Positions 6,118 to 36,012 of a stretch of DNA of 64,000 nucleotides are shown piece by piece. How positions within the stretch are numbered: the first letter of the stretch is position 1; every line of letters begins with the position of its first letter. Source of the DNA: Escherichia coli 042 (GTDB taxonomy: Bacteria > Pseudomonadota > Gammaproteobacteria > Enterobacterales > Enterobacteriaceae); the NCBI RefSeq assembly GCF_000027125.1, contig NC_017626.1, one strand, 5' to 3'. The translations under genes and the position numbers were made by a program. Under the pieces are notes generated by a model. That model saw nothing but the letters and a program-made list of their open reading frames with translations, ran no database searches and was not told the DNA's origin.

Positions 6118-6388
6118 TGGATGCCTGATGCGACGCTTGCCGCGTCTTATCAGGCCTACGCTAGACTGCGCAATAGCTTGATTTAGGGTGATTTTGTAGG
6201 TCGGATAAGGCGTTTACGCCGCATCCGACATCAATATCTGATGCGACGCTTACCGCGTCTTATCAGGCCTACGCCAGACTGCGCAATAGCCTGATTTAGC
6301 GTGATTTTGTAGGTCGGATAAGGCGTTTACGCCGCATCCGACATCAATGCCTGATGCGACGCTTGTCGCGTCTTATCAGGCCTACCTT
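6118..6388. repeat. REP/BIME cluster: about 2.3 tandem copies of a ~116-120 bp unit, each containing inverted REP palindromes
   Basis: Directly visible repetition of gatgcgacgcttgccgcgtcttatcaggcctac... and gtaggtcggataaggcgtttacgccgcatccgaca; REP consensus-like sequence between convergent gltP and yjcO. Confidence 0.85.
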
Positions 6389-7169: not shown

Positions 7170-9317
7170 TTACGCCAGTGCCGCTTCGCGCAGGCGAGTT
7201 TTCAACTTGTTGTACTCGTCAATCACGTACTGCTCGGCGGCGCGCTGATCGGCGATCGACTCGACGCGCACGGCGCAGTATTTGTATTCCGGCGTTTTCG
7301 TAATCGGGCTTAAGTTTTCGGTAACCAGCTCGTTACAGGCACCAATCCACCACTGGTAGGTCATATAAATCGCCCCTTTGTTCGGACGATCGCTGACCTG
7401 CGCACGGGTGATAATTTTGCCTTTACGCGAGTGCACCCAAACCAATGCCTCATCTTCAATACCCAGACGTTTGGCGTCTTCGGTATTGATTTGTGCGTAG
7501 CCAGGTTCATCAGCCAGCGCCGCCAGTGCCGCACAGTTACCGGTCATCGAACGGCAAGAGTAGTGACCAACTTCACGCACCGTTGACAGTACCATCGGAT
7601 ACTCGTCGGTGAGTTTGTCGATTGGCGCTACCCAGTCGCAGGTGAAGAACTGCGCCAGACCGTTCGGGGTATCAAACTTCTCTTTAAACAGATAAGAAGT
7701 CCCCTGATCGGCATCTGAAGTATCGCGGCAAGGCCACTGAATGAAGCCCAGTTCGCCCATTTTCTCGTAAGTCGCACCGTAGAAATCCGGGCACAGATGA
7801 CGCAACTCATCCCAGATCTCCTGGGTGTTGTTGTAGTGCATCGGATAACCCATACGAGTGGCAATTTCACTGATGATTTGCCAGTCCGTTTTCAGATCCC
7901 ATTTCGGTTCAACTGCTTTGAAGAAACGCTGGAAGCCACGGTCAGCCGCAGTAAACACGCCTTCATGCTCGCCCCACGACGTTGACGGTAAAATAACATC
8001 CGCCGCCGACGCGGTTTTGGTCATAAAGATGTCCTGAACGATAACCAGTTCCAGATCTTCAAAGGCTTTACGTACTGCCGACAGCTCCGCGTCAGTTTGC
8101 AGCGGATCTTCGCCCATAATGTACGCGGCACGCACTTCGCCATGCGCTGCGCGGTGCGGCAGCTCGCTGATGCGATAGCCGGTATGCGCTGGCAGGCTTT
8201 CCACGCCCCAGGCTTTGGCGAATTTCTCGCGGTTAGCCGGATCTTTCACGTACTGGTATCCCGGATACGTATCCGGCAGCGCGCCCATATCGCAGGCACC
8301 CTGCACGTTGTTCTGACCACGAACCGGGTTTACACCCGCATGCGGCTTACCGAGGTTACCGGTCAGCATCGCGAGGCTGGTCAGAGAACGCACGGTTTCC
8401 ACGCCCTGGTAGAACTGGGTTACACCCATGCCCCACAGGATGGCGGCGCTTTTCGCCTGGGCATACATCCGTGCCGCCTGACGAATCTCACTGGCGCTGA
8501 CGCCGGTGATATCTTCAACCGACTCCGGCGTGTAGCCTTCAACGATTTTACGATACTCTTCAAAGCCTTCTGTACGGGAAGCGACGAATGCTTTGTCGTA
8601 CAGATTTTCTTCAATAATGACATGGCCCATCGCATTCAACAGCGCGATGTTCGAGCCGTTTTTCAGTGCAATGTGGATGTCCGCAATGCGCGCGGTTTCA
8701 ATTTTGCGCGGATCGCAGACGATAATTTTCGCCCCGTTACGTTTAGCGTTAATTACGTGATTCGCCACGATTGGGTGGGAATCCGCCGGGTTGTACCCGA
8801 AAACGAACACTAAATCGGTATTATCAATTTCGTTAATAGCATTGCTCATTGCGCCATTACCGACCGATTGGTGCAGACCTGCAACCGATGGGCCGTGTCA
8901 GACACGAGCGCAGCAGTCAACGTTATTGGTACCAATAACGGCGCGCGCAAATTTTTGCATTACATAGTTGGTTTCGTTACCCGTACCACGCGAGGAGCCG
9001 GTCGTCTGGATGGCATCCGGACCGTACTTCTCTTTGATGGCGCTCAGGCGCTCGGCAACGTAATTCAGTGCCTCATCCCAGGAAACAGGTTCGAGTTTGC
9101 CGCCACGCTGGCGACGGATCATGGGGGTTTTCAGGCGCGGGGTCAGGATCTGGGTATCGTTAATGAAATCCCAGCCATAATAACCCTTCAGACACAGGGT
9201 ACCCTGGTTGGTTTTCCCCTGCGCTGCCTCCGCCCGGACGATTTTGCCGTTATCGACGACCAGGTTGATTTTGCAACCTGATGCGCAATAGGGGCAAACC
9301 GTGACGACTTTTTTCAT
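7170..9317 (-). CDS. fdhF: Formate dehydrogenase H (selenocysteine/molybdopterin enzyme); in-frame UGA at 8898-8900 decoded as Sec
   Basis: ORFs 8898..9317 and 7170..8849 are in the same frame, separated only by TGA (complement of tca at 8898-8900); together 715 codons; N-terminal Cys cluster (CPYCASGC). Confidence 0.95.
8850..8897 (-). other. SECIS mRNA stem-loop directing selenocysteine insertion at the fdhF UGA
   Basis: Immediately 3' of the UGA on the coding strand: CACGGCCCAUCGGUUGCAGGUCUGCACCAAUCGGUCGGUAAUGGCG, which I recognise as the fdhF SECIS hairpin. Confidence 0.85.
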
Positions 9318-14562: not shown

Positions 14563-16548
14563 TTAATTTGGGGTTACGATATTCACCCACAAATCGAAAT
14601 TATCCAGACAGGCAATAATTTCTTCCAGTTTCGCGCCATTGCCAATAATTTTGGCTTTCTTCGCTTTTACCAGATCCGCCATTTTGGCTTGTGCGGTCAG
14701 CACGGCGTGAAGATCTTCACGGCTGATGTAGAAAGAGGCGTTGGCTTCAGGTTGCAGCGTTTTACGGTAGTTAAGCACGCTATCGTTCAGCGTCAGGTTG
14801 AGGTTATCGCCGTTGCTCATATTGAAGTTCAGGCTGATATTCTTACCTGCGGCTTTCGCGCTATCGAGGCGAACGGCCATAAAGTCGAATAGCATTTCGA
14901 CCGACATTCCGCGAAGGGTGTCCGGGAAACCGGTGGAGCTGTGGCTGAACTTATGTACCCCTTCGCGCAGCTCTTTCGCGCCGGTCAGGTAGAAACCGCG
15001 CCAGGTGGCGGACTCGGCCTGATAGCCCAGCTGTTCAAAGTTATTCGCTTGCAGATTCTTCGCGACCTGGTCACCAGGGTTGGCGGCAATCACCTGTTTC
15101 AGCAGTTCTGCCGACCAGCGGTAATCACCTTGCTTGTTCGCTTCTTGCGCCAGGTTGATGACACGGGCAGAACCGCCCAGCGCCTGCACGTAACGTTTAC
15201 CCATCTCCACCTGACCATACGGATGCAGGTTAGCCGGGTTACCGTCGTAATAGCCAAGATAGAAGTTATACACCGCGCGGGCGTTGTGGCTGACAGAACC
15301 GTAATAGCCGCGGCTGGCCCAGTTATTGGCAAGCGCAGGCGGCAGCTTAATCATGTCGCCGATTTCATTCATGGTGTAGCCCTGGTTTGCCAGGTGCAGG
15401 GTCTGGTCGTGAATGTACTTGATGGTATCGCGATATTTACCAATATAATCATTGATATGCTTATTGCCCCAGACCGGCCAGGTGTGCGGCATAAACAGTA
15501 CTTCCGCGTCATTACCCCACATATCCAGCGTTTCGTTCAGATACTCGGTCCACTTGCTGGTGTCGCGGGTTTTCGCGCCGCGCAGAGTGTAGAAGTTGTG
15601 CAGGGTATGCGTGGCGTTCTCGGCGGTACACAGGGCTTTCAGAGCCGGAATATAGAAGTGCATTTCGGCTGGCGCTTCGCTACCCGGAGTCATCAGGAAG
15701 TCAAATTCCAGGCCGTCGATAATCATCTTCTCGCCAGTTCTGACGATAGTTTTAGTCGGTGCAATAATGCTCGGGTCGCCCGTTGCCAGCGTCACGCCCA
15801 GGCCGTTGCCCACGTTGCCTTGCGCGTTGTGCGGCAGTAACAGACCGTAAGAGTAGAGCGCACGGCGGCTCATGATGTTACCCGCCAGCACGTTTTCGCT
15901 GATGGCTTCGTCCATAAAGCCTGCCGGAGCGATCACCTGCACTTTGCCGGATTTAACATCCGCTTCAGAGATAATGCCTTTCACACCGCCATAATGGTCG
16001 GCGTGGCTGTGGGTGTAAATCACAGCAACAATCGGTTTTTGCGGACGATGCTGGAAGTAAAGGTCAAGTGCGGCTTTTGCGGCAGGCGGCGTCACCAGCG
16101 GGTCGATAACAATAATGCCTTTTTCGCCTTCTACAAATGTAACGTTAGAGATATCTTGGCCGCGCACCTGATACATTTTATCGGTGACTTTGAACAGGCC
16201 AGAAATACCGTTGATTTGCGACTGACGCCACAGGCTGGGGTTTACGGTTTCCGGCGCAGCGGCATTAATATCAAATTTGTAATCGTCTGCGCGGTAGTAA
16301 ACTTTACCGTTCGCATCACGCAGAATACCTTCATCCAGCAGCGGGGCGATAAATCCACGCTGGGCATCGTCAAAATCTTGACGATCGCTAAACGGTAATG
16401 ATTTGGCGTAATTCTGATTAATCTGTTGGGTATATTGAGTGGCGGCTTTCGCTTCCTCTTTCGCGTTAGCGGTATTTACCATCATGCCGCTGGCGGCAGT
16501 TAACGCAATAACAATCCTGCTCAAACGGAATAACCGAGAGTTATTCAT
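14563..16548 (-). CDS. yjcS: Alkyl/aryl sulfatase, metallo-beta-lactamase fold
   Basis: Signal peptide; HSHADH zinc-binding motif ([11 protein letters not shown]); start taken at the second in-frame Met region (MNNSRLF...); track ORF is 665 aa. Confidence 0.9.
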
Positions 16549-16800
16549 ATAAATCTCCATTTATCATTTATGTCGTAAATATGTAGTCCATGCAAAATAC
16601 GTCATTTGAAGCTGGCGTTATCATAATTGGGAATTTGCGACTTTAATAAGTGGAAGTGTGAGCGGAGCGAGCCATTTTATTAGGCATTTGTGCTGAAGAG
16701 GGAAAAGTACGCGAATTTATTATCTCTGTAAATAATATGAGGTATTTTATATATTTATTATATATATTGTACTTCGGCAAATACTGAGCACAATTAATCA

Positions 16801-17118
16801 ATGCAACCGGTGTTTCTTTTTAAAAAACGTACCGGAGCAATGGGCGGTCATGTCGCTGGCACCGCAGGATTCTGTGTTGCTGTGCCAACCTTTTATTCAT
16901 GGTCAATGAGTGAGGGGATTGATAAAGAAACCAGGTCGTCAGAGCGCACTGATTATCCGCATTACGCCAGTGACGTTGCACTGGCTTTTGGTTCACGAGT
17001 GGTTGGCCTCGAACTGGCAAAAATGATTGTGGATGCGTGGCTGGGCGCGCAGTACGAATGCGGTCGTCATCAACAACGCGTGGAGGCGATTACGGCAATA
17101 GAGCAGCGGAAAAATTGA
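16801..17118 (+). pseudogene. rpiB: Degenerate remnant of ribose-5-phosphate isomerase B (rpiB) with internal deletion and non-homologous 5' part
   Basis: 105 aa ORF contains SSERTDYPHYAS...VALA joined directly to FGSRVVGLELAKMIVDAWLGAQYE.GRHQQRVEAITAIEQR, which I recall as RpiB residues about 36-53 and 107-149; the catalytic middle is absent. Confidence 0.6.
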
Positions 17119-17186
17119 GATTCATCCACTACTTGCATGGATGAGTAATGACTAATATGGATAGAGTTTCTTTTTGAGGTTGGCTA

Positions 17187-17516
17187 ATGAAACGCTTTCC
17201 GCTATTTCTTTTATTCACCCTGCTCACGCTGTCCACCGTTCCGGCCCAGGCCGATATTATCGACGACACCATTGGCAATATTCAGCAGGCGATTAACGAT
17301 GCTTATAACCCTGACCGTGGGCGAGACTATGAAGATTCGCGCGACGACAGCTGGCAGCGTGAAGTGAACGACGATCGGCGCAGACAATATGACGATCGCC
17401 GCCGCCAGTTTGAAGATCGCCGCAGGCAGCTGGACGATCGCCAGCGCCAGCTTGATCAGGAGCGTCGGCAACTGGAGGATGAAGAGCGGAGAATGGAAGA
17501 TGAGTATGGGCGGTGA
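17187..17516 (+). CDS. yjdP: Secreted charged-repeat protein YjdP
   Basis: 109 aa; signal peptide (MKRFPLFLLFTLLTLSTVPAQA); tandem DDRRRQ-type repeats; GAGG RBS upstream. Confidence 0.8.
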   Translation: MKRFPLFLLFTLLTLSTVPAQADIIDDTIGNIQQAINDAYNPDRGRDYEDSRDDSWQREVNDDRRRQYDDRRRQFEDRRRQLDDRQRQLDQERRQLEDEERRMEDEYGR

Positions 17517-17550
17517 TGTTGAGTCTAGAGCAGGCATCGCCCCTCACCCA

Positions 17551-18321
17551 TCACTCCACCCCAATCTCCACCCCAATCTCCATCCCATCAAACCCCGCCT
17601 CAAACCCCGACGGCAGTGCGTTTTCCATCAGCCACGCATCAAACTGGTGGCTGATATGGGTCAGAATCACCCGTGGCGAGCGGATAACCTGATTCAGCGC
17701 AAGCACGGTATTTAAATCACAGTGATTACGCGGTGCATCCTCGCGCGGCGGGTGGCTGCAATCAATCACCATTACCTGTGGCTGATTATTGCGTAAAAAT
17801 TTCAGCGTTTTTTCCGGCAGGCCTGCGGTGTCAGACAGCCACGCCACCCGGCTATGTGCCGTTTCCAGTAAATAGCCGAAAGTGAGTTTCGAATGATTGA
17901 GCGGCAGCGGCGTGACCTGTAATCCCTGCAAATCAAACACTACAAACGGTTCCACCGTGTGGCTGAAATCAAGCAGGCCCGGATGTTTAAACAGATCGTC
18001 GCAGCCCTGTTCATCCGGCGGGCCGTAGACCGGGATCGAATCGCCCACGCCCCAGCGCAGCGGAAACAGCCCCTGCACGTGATCCATATGGTAGTGCGTC
18101 AGCAAAAACTGCTGGAACGATCCGGGCGACCAGCGATCGGCGAGATCGTGCAGCCCGGCGTCGATCAGGGTGATCGCGTCGTTAAACTTCACGACGCCGC
18201 TGCATGGCTGGCGGCGATACTGTGGTGAGCGCCGCGCTCTGACGCAGGCCGCGCACTCGCAGCCCCATGCCGGAACGCCCTGTGCGCCGCCGGTGCCGGT
18301 GAGCGTGAGGGTCAGACTCAT
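17551..18321 (-). CDS. phnP: PhnP, phosphoribosyl 1,2-cyclic phosphate phosphodiesterase
   Basis: 256 aa metallo-beta-lactamase fold (HYHMDH); last gene of the phn operon; C-terminus carries a 12-bp tandem duplication. Confidence 0.9.
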
Positions 18322-28978: not shown

Positions 28979-29137
28979 GATGGTGACCTCAGTTAAGAGA
29001 AGCCAGTTAAGTGTAGTTCGAAATTTATACAGATGAGAGGGAAGCCTGATAAGACGCGGTCAGCGTCGCATCAGGCAGTCGGCATCGTTGCCGGATGCGG
29101 CGCGAGCGCCTTATCCGGCTTACCGATCACAATACAA

Positions 29138-34744: not shown

Positions 34745-34794
34745 GCTGAAACGGATGGCCTGATGTGACGCTGTCTTATCAGGCCAATTGAAGT

Positions 34795-34811
34795 CTTAAG
34801 GTTCACTTAAT
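34795..34811 (+). promoter_or_regulatory. PmrA (BasR) box upstream of pmrR
   Basis: CTTAAGGTTCACTTAAT is a hexamer direct repeat with 5-bp spacer, matching the PmrA box pattern CTTAAT-N5-CTTAAT, about 45 bp upstream of the pmrR ATG. Confidence 0.7.
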
Positions 34812-34855
34812 CTCTGACGCGCATACTCTCCTCCAGGTTAACGGAGGAGAGTGCA

Positions 34856-34945
34856 ATGAAAAACCGTGTTTATGAAAGTTTAACTACCGTGTTCAGCGTG
34901 CTGGTGGTCAGCAGCTTTCTTTATATCTGGTTTGCCACGTACTGA
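34856..34945 (+). CDS. pmrR: PmrR, 29-aa membrane peptide (LpxT inhibitor)
   Basis: ATG at 34856 preceded by GGAGGA; encodes MKNRVYESLTTVFSVLVVSSFLYIWFATY; below the ORF-track size cutoff; its 3' end overlaps the convergent basS 3' end. Confidence 0.8.
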   Translation: MKNRVYESLTTVFSVLVVSSFLYIWFATY

Positions 34946-36012
34946 TCTTTCTTCAGCCGTACCCAGGCCCGCGTGCCGGAAGTCTCTTGCCGGTTTTGCA
35001 GGAAAAACTGCCCGTGATGCAACTGTGTAATGCGGCTGACAATACTTAACCCCAGACCAATCCCGCCATAACGGCTGTCCATACGTACAAACGCTTTACT
35101 CAACTCCCCGCATTTACTCTCATCAATACCCGGTCCTTCATCTTCAACGGCCATGACCGCTCCGCCATCTTCTTGCAGCTTAATCATAATGTTGCTGCCT
35201 TGCGGGCTGTAACGATGGGCGTTTTCTACCAGGTTTCGCAATAACATCCGCAGCAGGGTTGCATCACCTTGAACGGTGATGTCGGCGGCGCTCTCTGGCA
35301 ATAGCAGGGTTTGCTGTCGCTGGTCGAGCATGGTACTGAGTTCGTCATACGAGGGGAGAATGACATCTTCCAGCAGTTTTACATGTTGATAATTACCGGA
35401 AGAAAATGACTGTCCGGCACGCGCCAGTTGCAGCAGCTGGGAGACACTCTCCATCATCTGATCAAGCCGTGCCACTAACGGTGCTACATCAATGTGATGC
35501 GTTTTCGCCAGCAGTTCCAGATGCAAACGCACCCCCGCCAGTGGCGTTCGCAGTTCGTGCGCGACGTCAGCGGTAAACAACCTTTCGTTATCCAGCGTGC
35601 TGGTCAGGCGACTGACCAGATCGTTCAACGCCGAAACCACCGCTTCGATTTCGAGGGTGGCGCTGTGAATGGCAATAGGCGTTAAGTTGTCGGCGGTGCG
35701 CGCTTCCAGCTCTTTTTGCAGCTCCGCCAGCGGCCGGGTGATGCGGCGTACCGCCTGATAGCAGATAAATAGCGTCAGGCTGACCATAAAGACGCCGGGG
35801 ACGATCAGGCTGGCGACCGCCTCGCGGATCTCACGCATGATGTGGCGATCGTTGTTGCGATTGTCGCGTAGCGCCTGCTCAAACAGCTGAATCTGCTCGG
35901 TACTTTCATGCCATAGCCAGAAGACGCTGATCAGCTCAAACACCAACAAAATGGCCCCAATGGTCAATATCAGCCGTTGGCGCAGCGATATTGGTCGGCG
36001 CAGAAAACGCAT
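34921..36012 (-). CDS. basS: BasS (PmrB) sensor histidine kinase
   Basis: HisKA and HATPase motifs (HELRTPL, GIGLGLSIV); start uncertain between 36012 and 36021. Confidence 0.9.
   Translation of the reverse strand: MRFLRRPISLRQRLILTIGAILLVFELISVFWLWHESTEQIQLFEQALRDNRNNDRHIMREIREAVASLIVPGVFMVSLTLFICYQAVRRITRPLAELQKELEARTADNLTPIAIHSATLEIEAVVSALNDLVSRLTSTLDNERLFTADVAHELRTPLAGVRLHLELLAKTHHIDVAPLVARLDQMMESVSQLLQLARAGQSFSSGNYQHVKLLEDVILPSYDELSTMLDQRQQTLLLPESAADITVQGDATLLRMLLRNLVENAHRYSPQGSNIMIKLQEDGGAVMAVEDEGPGIDESKCGELSKAFVRMDSRYGGIGLGLSIVSRITQLHHGQFFLQNRQETSGTRAWVRLKKDQYVANQI

Follow-up and report, generated by a model that had tools for sequence, protein, structure and literature searches.

YjdP of Escherichia coli 042, a predicted periplasmic protein with a charged heptad repeat and a candidate RcsB-type operator

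The window analyzed in this study is a stretch of 64,000 nucleotides from contig NC_017626.1 of Escherichia coli 042 (assembly GCF_000027125.1). Within it, the short gene yjdP lies downstream of a damaged copy of rpiB and converges with phnP. The features of the locus, several of them predicted, are as follows.

14563-16560, minus strand: yjcS, flanking the yjdP region
16801-17118, plus strand: rpiB remnant, with a match confined to the RpiB C-terminus (Pfam PF02502 positions 102-138)
17116-17129, plus strand: RcsB-box-like putative operator TGAGATTCATCCAC, overlapping the TGA stop codon (17116-17118) of the rpiB remnant
17153-17158, plus strand: -10-like hexamer TAATAT, beginning 37 nt downstream of the first base of the RcsB-like box
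17176-17179, plus strand: Shine-Dalgarno sequence GAGG, 7 nt before the ATG; orthologues keep GAG(A/G) there
17187-17516, plus strand: yjdP coding sequence from ATG to TGA, 109 amino acids plus stop (NCBIfam NF041443)
17187-17252, plus strand: predicted Sec-type signal peptide, residues 1-22, MKRFPLFLLFTLLTLSTVPAQA, with predicted cleavage between Ala22 and Asp23
17214-17237, plus strand: imperfect 9-nt proto-repeat TTCACCCTG CTCACGCTG TCCACC within the hydrophobic core of the signal peptide
17253-17306, plus strand: predicted amphipathic N-terminal helix of mature YjdP, residues 23-40, DIIDDTIGNIQQAINDAY (alignment, AlphaFold2)
17307-17369, plus strand: acidic/polar linker, residues 41-61, varying in length and sequence between genera in the alignments
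17370-17513, plus strand: residues 62-109, the heptad repeats, with the unit DDRRRQ[Y/F/L/M] present in six and a half copies
17370-17453, plus strand: 21-nt DNA tandem repeat beneath the first four heptads (Tandem Repeats Finder, repeat search)
17551-18321, minus strand: phnP, facing yjdP tail-to-tail, with 34 nt between their stop codons

Upstream of yjdP, window positions 16911-16990 align to nucleotides 84-163 of K-12 rpiB and positions 16981-17118 to nucleotides 313-450. The remnant is an rpiB gene with a 5' truncation and an internal deletion of about 150 bp, and the deletion scar that the original prediction had placed beside yjdP is present. The als genes found between yjcS and rpiB are absent from the window. 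E. coli genomes with the same arrangement annotate the remnant either as a frameshifted pseudogene or as a short 'RpiB/LacA/LacB family' coding sequence. On the other side, phnP, phnO, phnN, and phnM occupy the minus strand from 17551 onwards, and a terminator scan predicted no intrinsic terminator between yjdP and phnP.

It is virtually certain that the open reading frame at 17187-17516 is yjdP and its product a member of the YjdP family. The protein matched NCBIfam NF041443, "DDRRRQL repeat protein YjdP", over profile positions 1-101 of 101 (147.5 bits, E=1.2e-43); the curated cutoff for the whole protein is 90 bits. The gene name given originally was thus correct, and the sequence quoted with it agrees exactly with the reading frame. 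RefSeq annotates the orthologous gene in E. coli genomes as yjdP, and PF28054 was precomputed on 120 of 120 database homologues among the matches listed; a Pfam search in a release without PF28054 returned only chance-level matches. Two of the 109 residues differ from the K-12 protein, and the exact sequence (with Ser55 and Asn61) had no identical entry among ~15 billion catalogued proteins. Over 12 kb, the nearest complete genome matched the E. coli-like window sequence at 98.6% identity. A HMMER search run exhaustively against 1.84 billion cluster representatives gave 52 matches, many of them fragments, with no distant annotated relatives, and a PHROGs search gave no match. The family is therefore already known and named for its DDRRRQL repeat. 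Its description as poorly characterized was nevertheless apt: within the searchable literature, neither a study of the YjdP protein itself nor the string DDRRRQL was found.

Of 5426 complete E. coli genomes, 5404 carry the gene. When one genome per species was scanned, 102 relatives were confirmed. The 80 loci that were kept all belong to Enterobacteriaceae; the genera include Escherichia, Citrobacter, Enterobacter, Raoultella, Kosakonia, Buttiauxella, Leclercia, Kluyvera, Atlantibacter, Trabulsiella, and Cedecea, and Klebsiella oxytoca is represented as well. In 78 of the 80 loci the gene is intact and encodes 101-116 amino acids with a single architecture, the exceptions being a premature stop (L074) and an ambiguous base (L067). 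Comparison with twelve orthologues in the plus frame gave dN/dS values of 0.06-0.33 overall, indicating purifying selection. By region, the repeats had the lowest values (0.00-0.09), and the constraint was weakest in the signal peptide (0.3-1.1), a range expected for signal peptides; synonymous sites were saturated in the comparison with Citrobacter. Judged from these alignments, yjdP is a real, vertically inherited Enterobacteriaceae gene under selection. An antisense reading frame of 108 amino acids (17211-17537) was considered as a gene and rejected, because the substitutions fit purifying selection in the yjdP plus frame; it is a by-product of the stop-free repeat.

Among the 80 species, yjdP stands tail-to-tail with phnP in 71, with stop codons that often abut or overlap, while the upstream neighbor varies (rpiB in 14 species). 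This constancy and the very high arginine content of YjdP would suit an accessory of the phn (carbon-phosphorus lyase) pathway, for instance a periplasmic binder of phosphonate or phosphate acting through its arginines. Such a role is very improbable. The gene is convergent with the phn operon and not part of it, and it is kept in genomes with no phn genes within 6 kb (e.g., L024, L025, L061, L069, and L072). The Pseudocitrobacter phn genes share 91-100% identity with those of E. coli, compared to only 68-69% for yjdP, so that the two were not inherited as a unit. Moreover, YjdP is net acidic, no Pho box was evident by eye upstream of yjdP, and, in the accessible part of one transcriptome study, ceragenins induced the PhoB regulon, yet the gene set that contains yjdP lacks the ceragenin CSA131 (PMC8787472). 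Because of the convergent orientation, the persistence of yjdP without nearby phn genes, and the diverging identities in Pseudocitrobacter, the adjacency of yjdP and phnP is not read as functional coupling.

YjdP is very probably exported, as predicted from its N-terminus. The signal peptide consists of MKR, the core FPLFLLFTLLTLSTV, and PAQA, followed by the Asp of the mature protein. In 77 orthologues, the residue at position -1 is Ala throughout (77/77), position -3 is Ala in 73, Val in three, and Thr in one, and position +1 is Asp in all 77. One or two Lys/Arg residues precede an uncharged core of mostly 14-17 residues in these orthologues. The hallmarks of Sec export and of cleavage by signal peptidase I, namely a basic N-terminus, an uncharged hydrophobic core, and small residues at -3 and -1, are thus all found in YjdP, and the first mature residues are acidic. 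A twin-arginine (Tat) motif of the form S/T-R-R-x-F-L-K was not found; the N-region reads M-K-R-F-P, with no RR pair. Likewise, YjdP has no lipobox, as the mature part lacks Cys in 77 of 77 orthologues. The precursor would therefore be translocated by the Sec system and processed by signal peptidase I at the Ala22-Asp23 bond, to give a predicted periplasmic protein of 87 residues that is acidic and contains neither Cys nor Lys (computed mass 11.0 kDa, pI 4.6, GRAVY -2.32, 3.4% Gly). In ST131-type strains, TTCACGCTG is perfectly repeated at the position of the 9-nt proto-repeat, in 3, 5, or 6 copies, and the corresponding proteins have 112, 118, and 121 amino acids. This microsatellite within the signal peptide of ST131-type strains is reported here for the first time.

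The mature protein starts with the block of residues 23-40, which has the most invariant columns of any block in the alignment, and Ile25, Ile29, Ile32, Ile36, and Ala39 are arranged in a 4-3-4-3 hydrophobic spacing. Beyond the linker, the sequence from residue 62 can be written in sevens as DDRRRQY, DDRRRQF, EDRRRQL, DDRQRQL, DQERRQL, EDEERRM, and EDEYGR. This region comprises 48 residues of the 109, which corresponds to 55% of the mature chain, and 67% of its residues are charged, with a net charge of -1. Self-identity of YjdP at a lag of seven residues was 0.60, compared to 0.175 in composition-preserving shuffles (z=8.2; none of 5000 as high), and was significant at lags of 14 and 21 as well. 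Each heptad contains a single hydrophobic residue, placed exactly every seven positions (7 of 49 residues). Even at one residue per heptad, these side chains make a stripe, which could drive oligomerization.

The periodicity extends to the DNA. Tandem Repeats Finder reported a period of 21 nt at 17370-17442 (3.5 copies, 78% matches), and a DNA repeat search found three 42-nt copies (family D1) spaced by 21 nt with 76% identity; the individual 21-nt units have 13-18 of 21 bases in common. These results agree with the original prediction, which had described, behind a signal peptide, imperfect, charged DDRRRQ-type tandem repeats with correspondingly repetitive DNA. Its statement that the protein consists largely of such repeats is a fair one given their share of the mature chain.

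The original prediction had also suggested comparing repeat number among strains. This number does vary: YjdP protein clusters span 100-123 amino acids, 102-aa alleles are short of one heptad, the missing unit lying at three or more different sites, and one 123-aa protein of E. albertii carries two additional units. The prediction escaped refutation only narrowly, since variation is rare and the 109-aa form (a 330-nt gene) dominates in complete E. coli genomes. The one 102-aa allele that could be counted, that of strain SCU-115, occurred in ~16-18 of 5405 complete E. coli records at an identity of at least 95%, or ~0.3%.

Repeats of this kind could in principle make yjdP a contingency locus, hypervariable in length and selected for diversity, and the range of lengths as well as the separate 9-nt microsatellite with its three to six copies in ST131-type strains would suit that idea. 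For the heptads, it is largely refuted and we regard it as very unlikely: the 21-nt units are only 76-78% identical, the counted one-heptad deletion is scarce, and the length changes in complete genomes are all in frame. In addition, different genera retain the number and register of the heptads, and the repeats have the lowest dN/dS of the gene. For these last two reasons, the heptads appear from the alignments to be a conserved structural module and not a fast-evolving or hypervariable tract.

A structural model of YjdP was generated with AlphaFold2 from an alignment of 77 sequences. It contained helices at residues 5-16, 22-40, and 54-107, the last of these continuous, whereas residues 41-53 were modeled as coil with low pLDDT. 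Confidence exceeded 90 for residues 70-100 and was moderate (54-66) for the helix 22-40. The predicted helix of 54 residues would be ~8 nm long. Opposite-charge pairs at spacings of i+3 and i+4 were in excess in the heptads, with 37 pairs compared to 22.3 ± 3.6 in shuffled sequences (one of 5000 as high). This dense pattern of opposite charges at i and i+4 is the signature of charged single alpha-helices (SAH), and a long helix is what the model predicts. Canonical coiled coils have hydrophobic residues at both the a and the d position; in YjdP, the second core position would be Arg.

The principal alternative for the heptad region is that it forms one subunit of a homo-oligomeric coiled coil, dimeric or trimeric, in which one core position is filled by Leu, Phe, or Tyr and the second by Arg, anions perhaps being bound in the core, so that YjdP would make a periplasmic fiber somewhat like Lpp or adhesin stalks. 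The strict seven-residue period, with the hydrophobic residue at the same position of every unit, speaks for such an assembly, and the 4-3-4-3 pattern of the N-terminal helix could nucleate oligomers. A sequence profile search of the PDB pointed in the same direction, as it matched nothing but heptad coiled coils, namely M protein serotype 6 at E=0.01 and, at E=0.036, the EibD stalk; these matches are marginal and not significant, and no related solved structure emerged from the search. A Foldseek comparison of the AlphaFold2 model with the PDB gave no matches, as expected of a lone helix. When YjdP was modeled as a linked dimer, the pTM rose slightly from 0.39 to 0.44, whereas pLDDT was not raised and the N-terminal helices became less confident; AlphaFold2 does not distinguish between a single helix and a coiled-coil subunit here. 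Against the coiled coil, Arg would occupy the second core position in nearly every heptad and cause repulsion unless counter-ions were bound, and the excess of intrahelical opposite charges is that of a single helix. We consider a coiled coil possible, although the odds are clearly against it. With one hydrophobic residue per heptad and many Asp/Glu-Arg pairs at i and i+4, the model favors a charged single alpha-helix over a classical two-seam coiled coil, and we would put that assignment at about even odds.

The published RcsB homodimer box is TN(G/A)GAN4TC(T/C)NA (PMC7913699). The element TGAGATTCATCCAC at 17116-17129 matches eight of its nine specified positions, the last A of the consensus being C in the window. 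For a wider comparison, the 110 nt before the ATG were aligned for the window and 79 other loci; L057, with a mis-set start codon, was left out. Regardless of the upstream gene, the block TTGAGATTCCTCCGCTAC was conserved in all loci, and the core TNRGAN4TCY occurred 70-75 nt before the ATG in 80 of 80 loci, compared to a background of 0.003 per 41-nt window. Between loci, the element alternates between TGAGA and TGGGA and between TCC and TCT, and there is free variation at the N4 positions and in both flanks, a pattern that fits what a working RcsB site would predict. The conserved RcsB-box-like motif upstream of yjdP is new here.

In an alignment of 30 genera, the downstream hexamer reads TAnnnT with A2 and T6 invariant, and no conservation is seen in the 19-20 nt that separate it from the box. 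If TAATAT is the -10 element, the box would span about -49 to -36 and abut a weak -35. RcsB-activated promoters that are independent of RcsA, such as those of osmC and rprA, agree with a box placed against a weak -35. A strict sigma-70 scan found no promoter upstream of yjdP, which fits an activator-dependent promoter of this type. Transcription of yjdP would thus start at an activator-dependent promoter with the RcsB box abutting its weak -35. Other elements searched for in this region gave little. Rfam had no match in 16500-17700 at E≤1, and RNAalifold gave no consensus structure for the 5' UTR across 30 genera. A hand-specified GCCAG/CTGGC hairpin in the 5' UTR was weakly supported (71% of cells paired compared to 68% in shuffles, 11 of 500 as high) and is not formed by the window sequence (z=0.25), and the inverted repeat I1 (17121-17136/17468-17483) was treated as a chance occurrence.

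Published transcriptomes are in line with such a promoter. A LolCDE inhibitor raised the yjdP mRNA 9.5- and 10.6-fold, together with osmB, bdm, wca, ivy, mliC, and yjbEFGH (PMC5105897). In the accessible part of a second study, a gene set for colistin, CSA13, and LL37 contains yjdP together with wca, bdm, ivy, and yjbE/G, and induction of Rcs by colistin/LL37-type peptides is reported (PMC8787472). We take this set, from Data Set S3, to be the up-regulated one on account of its other members; in the proteomic supplementary files examined from the same source, yjdP was absent. Two properties of Rcs regulon members are accordingly found for yjdP, a box in its predicted promoter and, in the literature, induction under an Rcs-activating treatment. 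Control by RcsB, and thereby membership in the Rcs envelope-stress regulon, is probable on the basis of the conserved promoter sequence.

The co-induction needs to be interpreted with care. As both treatments raise Cpx and RpoS genes as well, it is no proof of dependence on RcsB, and the searchable literature yielded no experiment on yjdP with an rcsB mutant or with RcsB binding in vitro. Nor is the pattern itself rare. A 30-kb control region with bdm and osmC contained three matches to the strict core compared to 9.8 expected, and the core was therefore not enriched; one match lay in the bdm-osmC intergenic region and two elsewhere. As the strict core is common by itself, the argument for RcsB rests mainly on the phylogenetic footprint.

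The motif might thus serve a different factor, with yjdP being induced through RpoS, Cpx, or another LuxR/FixJ-type regulator with a similar half-site. Genes of RpoS (osmY, katE, otsBA) and of Cpx (cpxP, degP, spy) were indeed raised by the treatments, the DNA read-out of RcsB is described as weak and promiscuous (PMC7913699), the core is not enriched in the control region, and a ChIP/RNA-seq study places yjdP among the genes bound and repressed by CsiR (PMC5217608). However, the variation of the operator across 80 species follows the degeneracy of the RcsB box exactly, and the genes that were induced similarly in both transcriptome studies are classic Rcs targets. The motif also does not resemble what we take to be the CpxR, sigma-E, or PhoB consensus sequences. 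Regulation by a factor other than RcsB is hence considered unlikely, and RcsB remains our preferred assignment.

Taken together, the best overall explanation is that yjdP encodes an exported charged-rod protein regulated by Rcs, to which we assign a probability of roughly 55%. Upon Rcs activation, the periplasm would then be loaded with the rod; the N-terminal helix would be its docking or oligomerizing end, and the charged part would work electrostatically or as a spacer. This physiological role, a docking helix carrying a charged rod in an Rcs-stressed periplasm, is proposed with little confidence. Still more speculative is an extended version, in which an RcsB-activated periplasmic single-helix rod, restricted to Enterobacteriaceae, docks via its invariant N-terminal helix and, under stress, gives the envelope a spacer or an electrostatic shield, while the slippage-prone 9-nt repeat of ST131 would stretch the signal core from ~15 to 24-27 residues and so tune release against membrane anchoring.

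As the family is already known and carries the name of its repeat, the present work re-describes a gene that curators had recognized, and in this respect changes little. Its value is that of a lead: a gene that is nearly universal in E. coli gains a testable place in the cell, as a predicted periplasmic protein behind a conserved RcsB-type candidate operator, whose expression rises with lipoprotein-trafficking inhibitors and, as it seems, with polymyxin-class peptides. Should this be confirmed, the Rcs envelope-stress response gains a structurally unusual member, and the length polymorphism of the ST131 signal peptide would be a natural experiment on core length.

Compared to known systems, the closest counterpart is NCBIfam NF041443/Pfam PF28054 with yjdP of E. 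coli K-12, which is the same gene and family and differs in nothing essential. Hydrophilins are characterized by a Gly content above about 6% and high hydrophilicity; mature YjdP is extremely hydrophilic, but its Gly content is below that value. Charged single alpha-helix ('ER/K') domains occur in eukaryotic myosins and related proteins. The YjdP heptads are similar to them in their high charge, near-zero net charge, excess of i+3/i+4 pairs, and long, solitary predicted helix. They differ in the use of Asp, Arg, and Gln instead of Glu and Lys, in the strict heptad with its one hydrophobic residue, and in belonging to a bacterial, presumably exported protein; there is no sequence relationship, and single-helix behavior is a prediction for YjdP.

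Braun's lipoprotein (Lpp) has a lipobox, a lipid-modified N-terminal Cys, and two hydrophobic core positions per heptad, and it forms a trimer. Like Lpp, YjdP would be a small, all-helical, heptad-repeat envelope protein of enterobacteria; unlike Lpp, it contains no Cys and has one hydrophobic position per heptad, and neither the HMMER cluster search nor the PDB profile search found homology between the two. The stalks of streptococcal M protein and of trimeric autotransporter adhesins (PDB 9mmx and 2xzr), the best PDB matches, have the seven-residue period and one Leu per unit but are large, surface-anchored fibers. As the E-values are only 0.01-0.04, their resemblance to YjdP is one of composition and period. 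Finally, the Rcs regulon includes small secreted proteins (OsmB, Bdm, Ivy, MliC, YpeC, and YjbEFGH) that were co-induced with yjdP in the two transcriptome studies; their sequences are unrelated to that of YjdP, and yjdP itself has a candidate RcsB-box-like element upstream.

Among ST131-type E. coli, yjdP carries a perfect 9-nt microsatellite, (TTCACGCTG)n, within the hydrophobic core of the signal peptide. The array encodes FTL repeats, and copy numbers of 3, 5, and 6 give YjdP proteins of 112, 118, and 121 aa, respectively. The loci concerned, all homologous to window 17214-17237, are:

L001:1501-1857, yjdP with microsatellite (EC958)
L002:1501-1866, yjdP with microsatellite
L003:1501-1839, yjdP with microsatellite

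The 5-copy allele of EC958 was found at ≥99% identity in approximately 397 of 5405 records. In the window, 17214-17237 holds only an imperfect version of the array, with two and a half copies. Separately, the signal-peptide N-terminus of YjdP from O157 was divergent (MKRHSTLFLF...), and four further substitutions distinguished this protein from that of K-12 (Y40S, R87H, D90N, and R109Q). At the same O157:H7 EDL933 locus, phnO (L004:2651-3086) is annotated as a frameshifted pseudogene.

Directly 5' of the yjdP start codon, a hairpin enclosing the Shine-Dalgarno sequence was observed in many genera:

L035:5974-6012, yjdP 5' UTR hairpin, GCCAG...CTGGC
L049:5974-6012, yjdP 5' UTR hairpin, GCCAG...CTGGC
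other orthologue loci, yjdP 5' UTR hairpin, GCCAG...CTGGC

Some compensatory changes were present in the arms (GTCAG/CTGAC), and in Klebsiella oxytoca and in one Citrobacter the fold had a z-score of about -2.5. Overall, covariation lent the hairpin weak support. The GCCAG...CTGGC hairpin is absent from the yjdP 5' UTR of the window (fold z=0.25).

[quoted passage not shown] Such repression upon CsiR induction does not fit the proposed activation of yjdP by RcsB.

Upstream of yjdP, the stretch back to yjcS (16561-17118) lacks both the als operon and the 5' part of rpiB, and the rpiB remnant additionally bears an internal deletion of ~150 bp. AT-rich sequence makes up the junction (16643-16800), and short TA-rich repeats lie within it at 16743-16768. 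A 12-kb query spanning this junction was covered to ≥80% by one single match in 1585 of the 5426 complete E. coli genomes, which suggests that these genomes share the als/rpiB arrangement of the window. In EHEC, the yjcS-yjdP site is occupied by the OI167 island instead (PMC10128022).

Positions 17554-17587, which belong to the 3' end of phnP, hold 2.8 tandem copies of a 12-nt unit, CTCCACCCCAAT, with 95% matches. PhnP of the window comprises 256 aa versus 252 aa in K-12, O157, GF43, and EC958, and its C-terminus differs from those of all four (...GMEIGVA in K-12, O157, and GF43; ...GMEIEVE in EC958), so that the window protein has one additional IGVE unit. Across three Pseudocitrobacter loci (L047, L058, and L068), PhnP, PhnO, PhnN, and PhnM were 91-100% identical to the window proteins, whereas the adjoining YjdP reached only 68-69%. 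This disparity suggests that the phn operon was transferred recently between Escherichia and Pseudocitrobacter, with the phnP/yjdP junction as the breakpoint.

Elsewhere in the window, the following elements were matched at the Rfam gathering threshold:

34787-34952, + strand, sRNA STnc630
29043-29120, - strand, naRNA4 (REP-type), one of three copies
6199-6269, + strand, naRNA4 (REP-type), another of the three copies
6312-6382, + strand, naRNA4 (REP-type), the remaining copy
8851-8905, - strand, SECIS_2 selenocysteine insertion element

No terminator was predicted between the convergent yjdP and phnP in the window, where the two genes are spaced by 34 nt (17517-17550), compared to 146 nt in K-12 (L006:1831-1976) and 76 nt in O157 (L004:1815-1890). 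Relative to the window, an additional G-rich, REP-like insert separates the genes in both of these strains. The K-12/O157 insert corresponds to a published G-quadruplex/hairpin element that is listed for the yjdP-phnP interval (PMC5100583).
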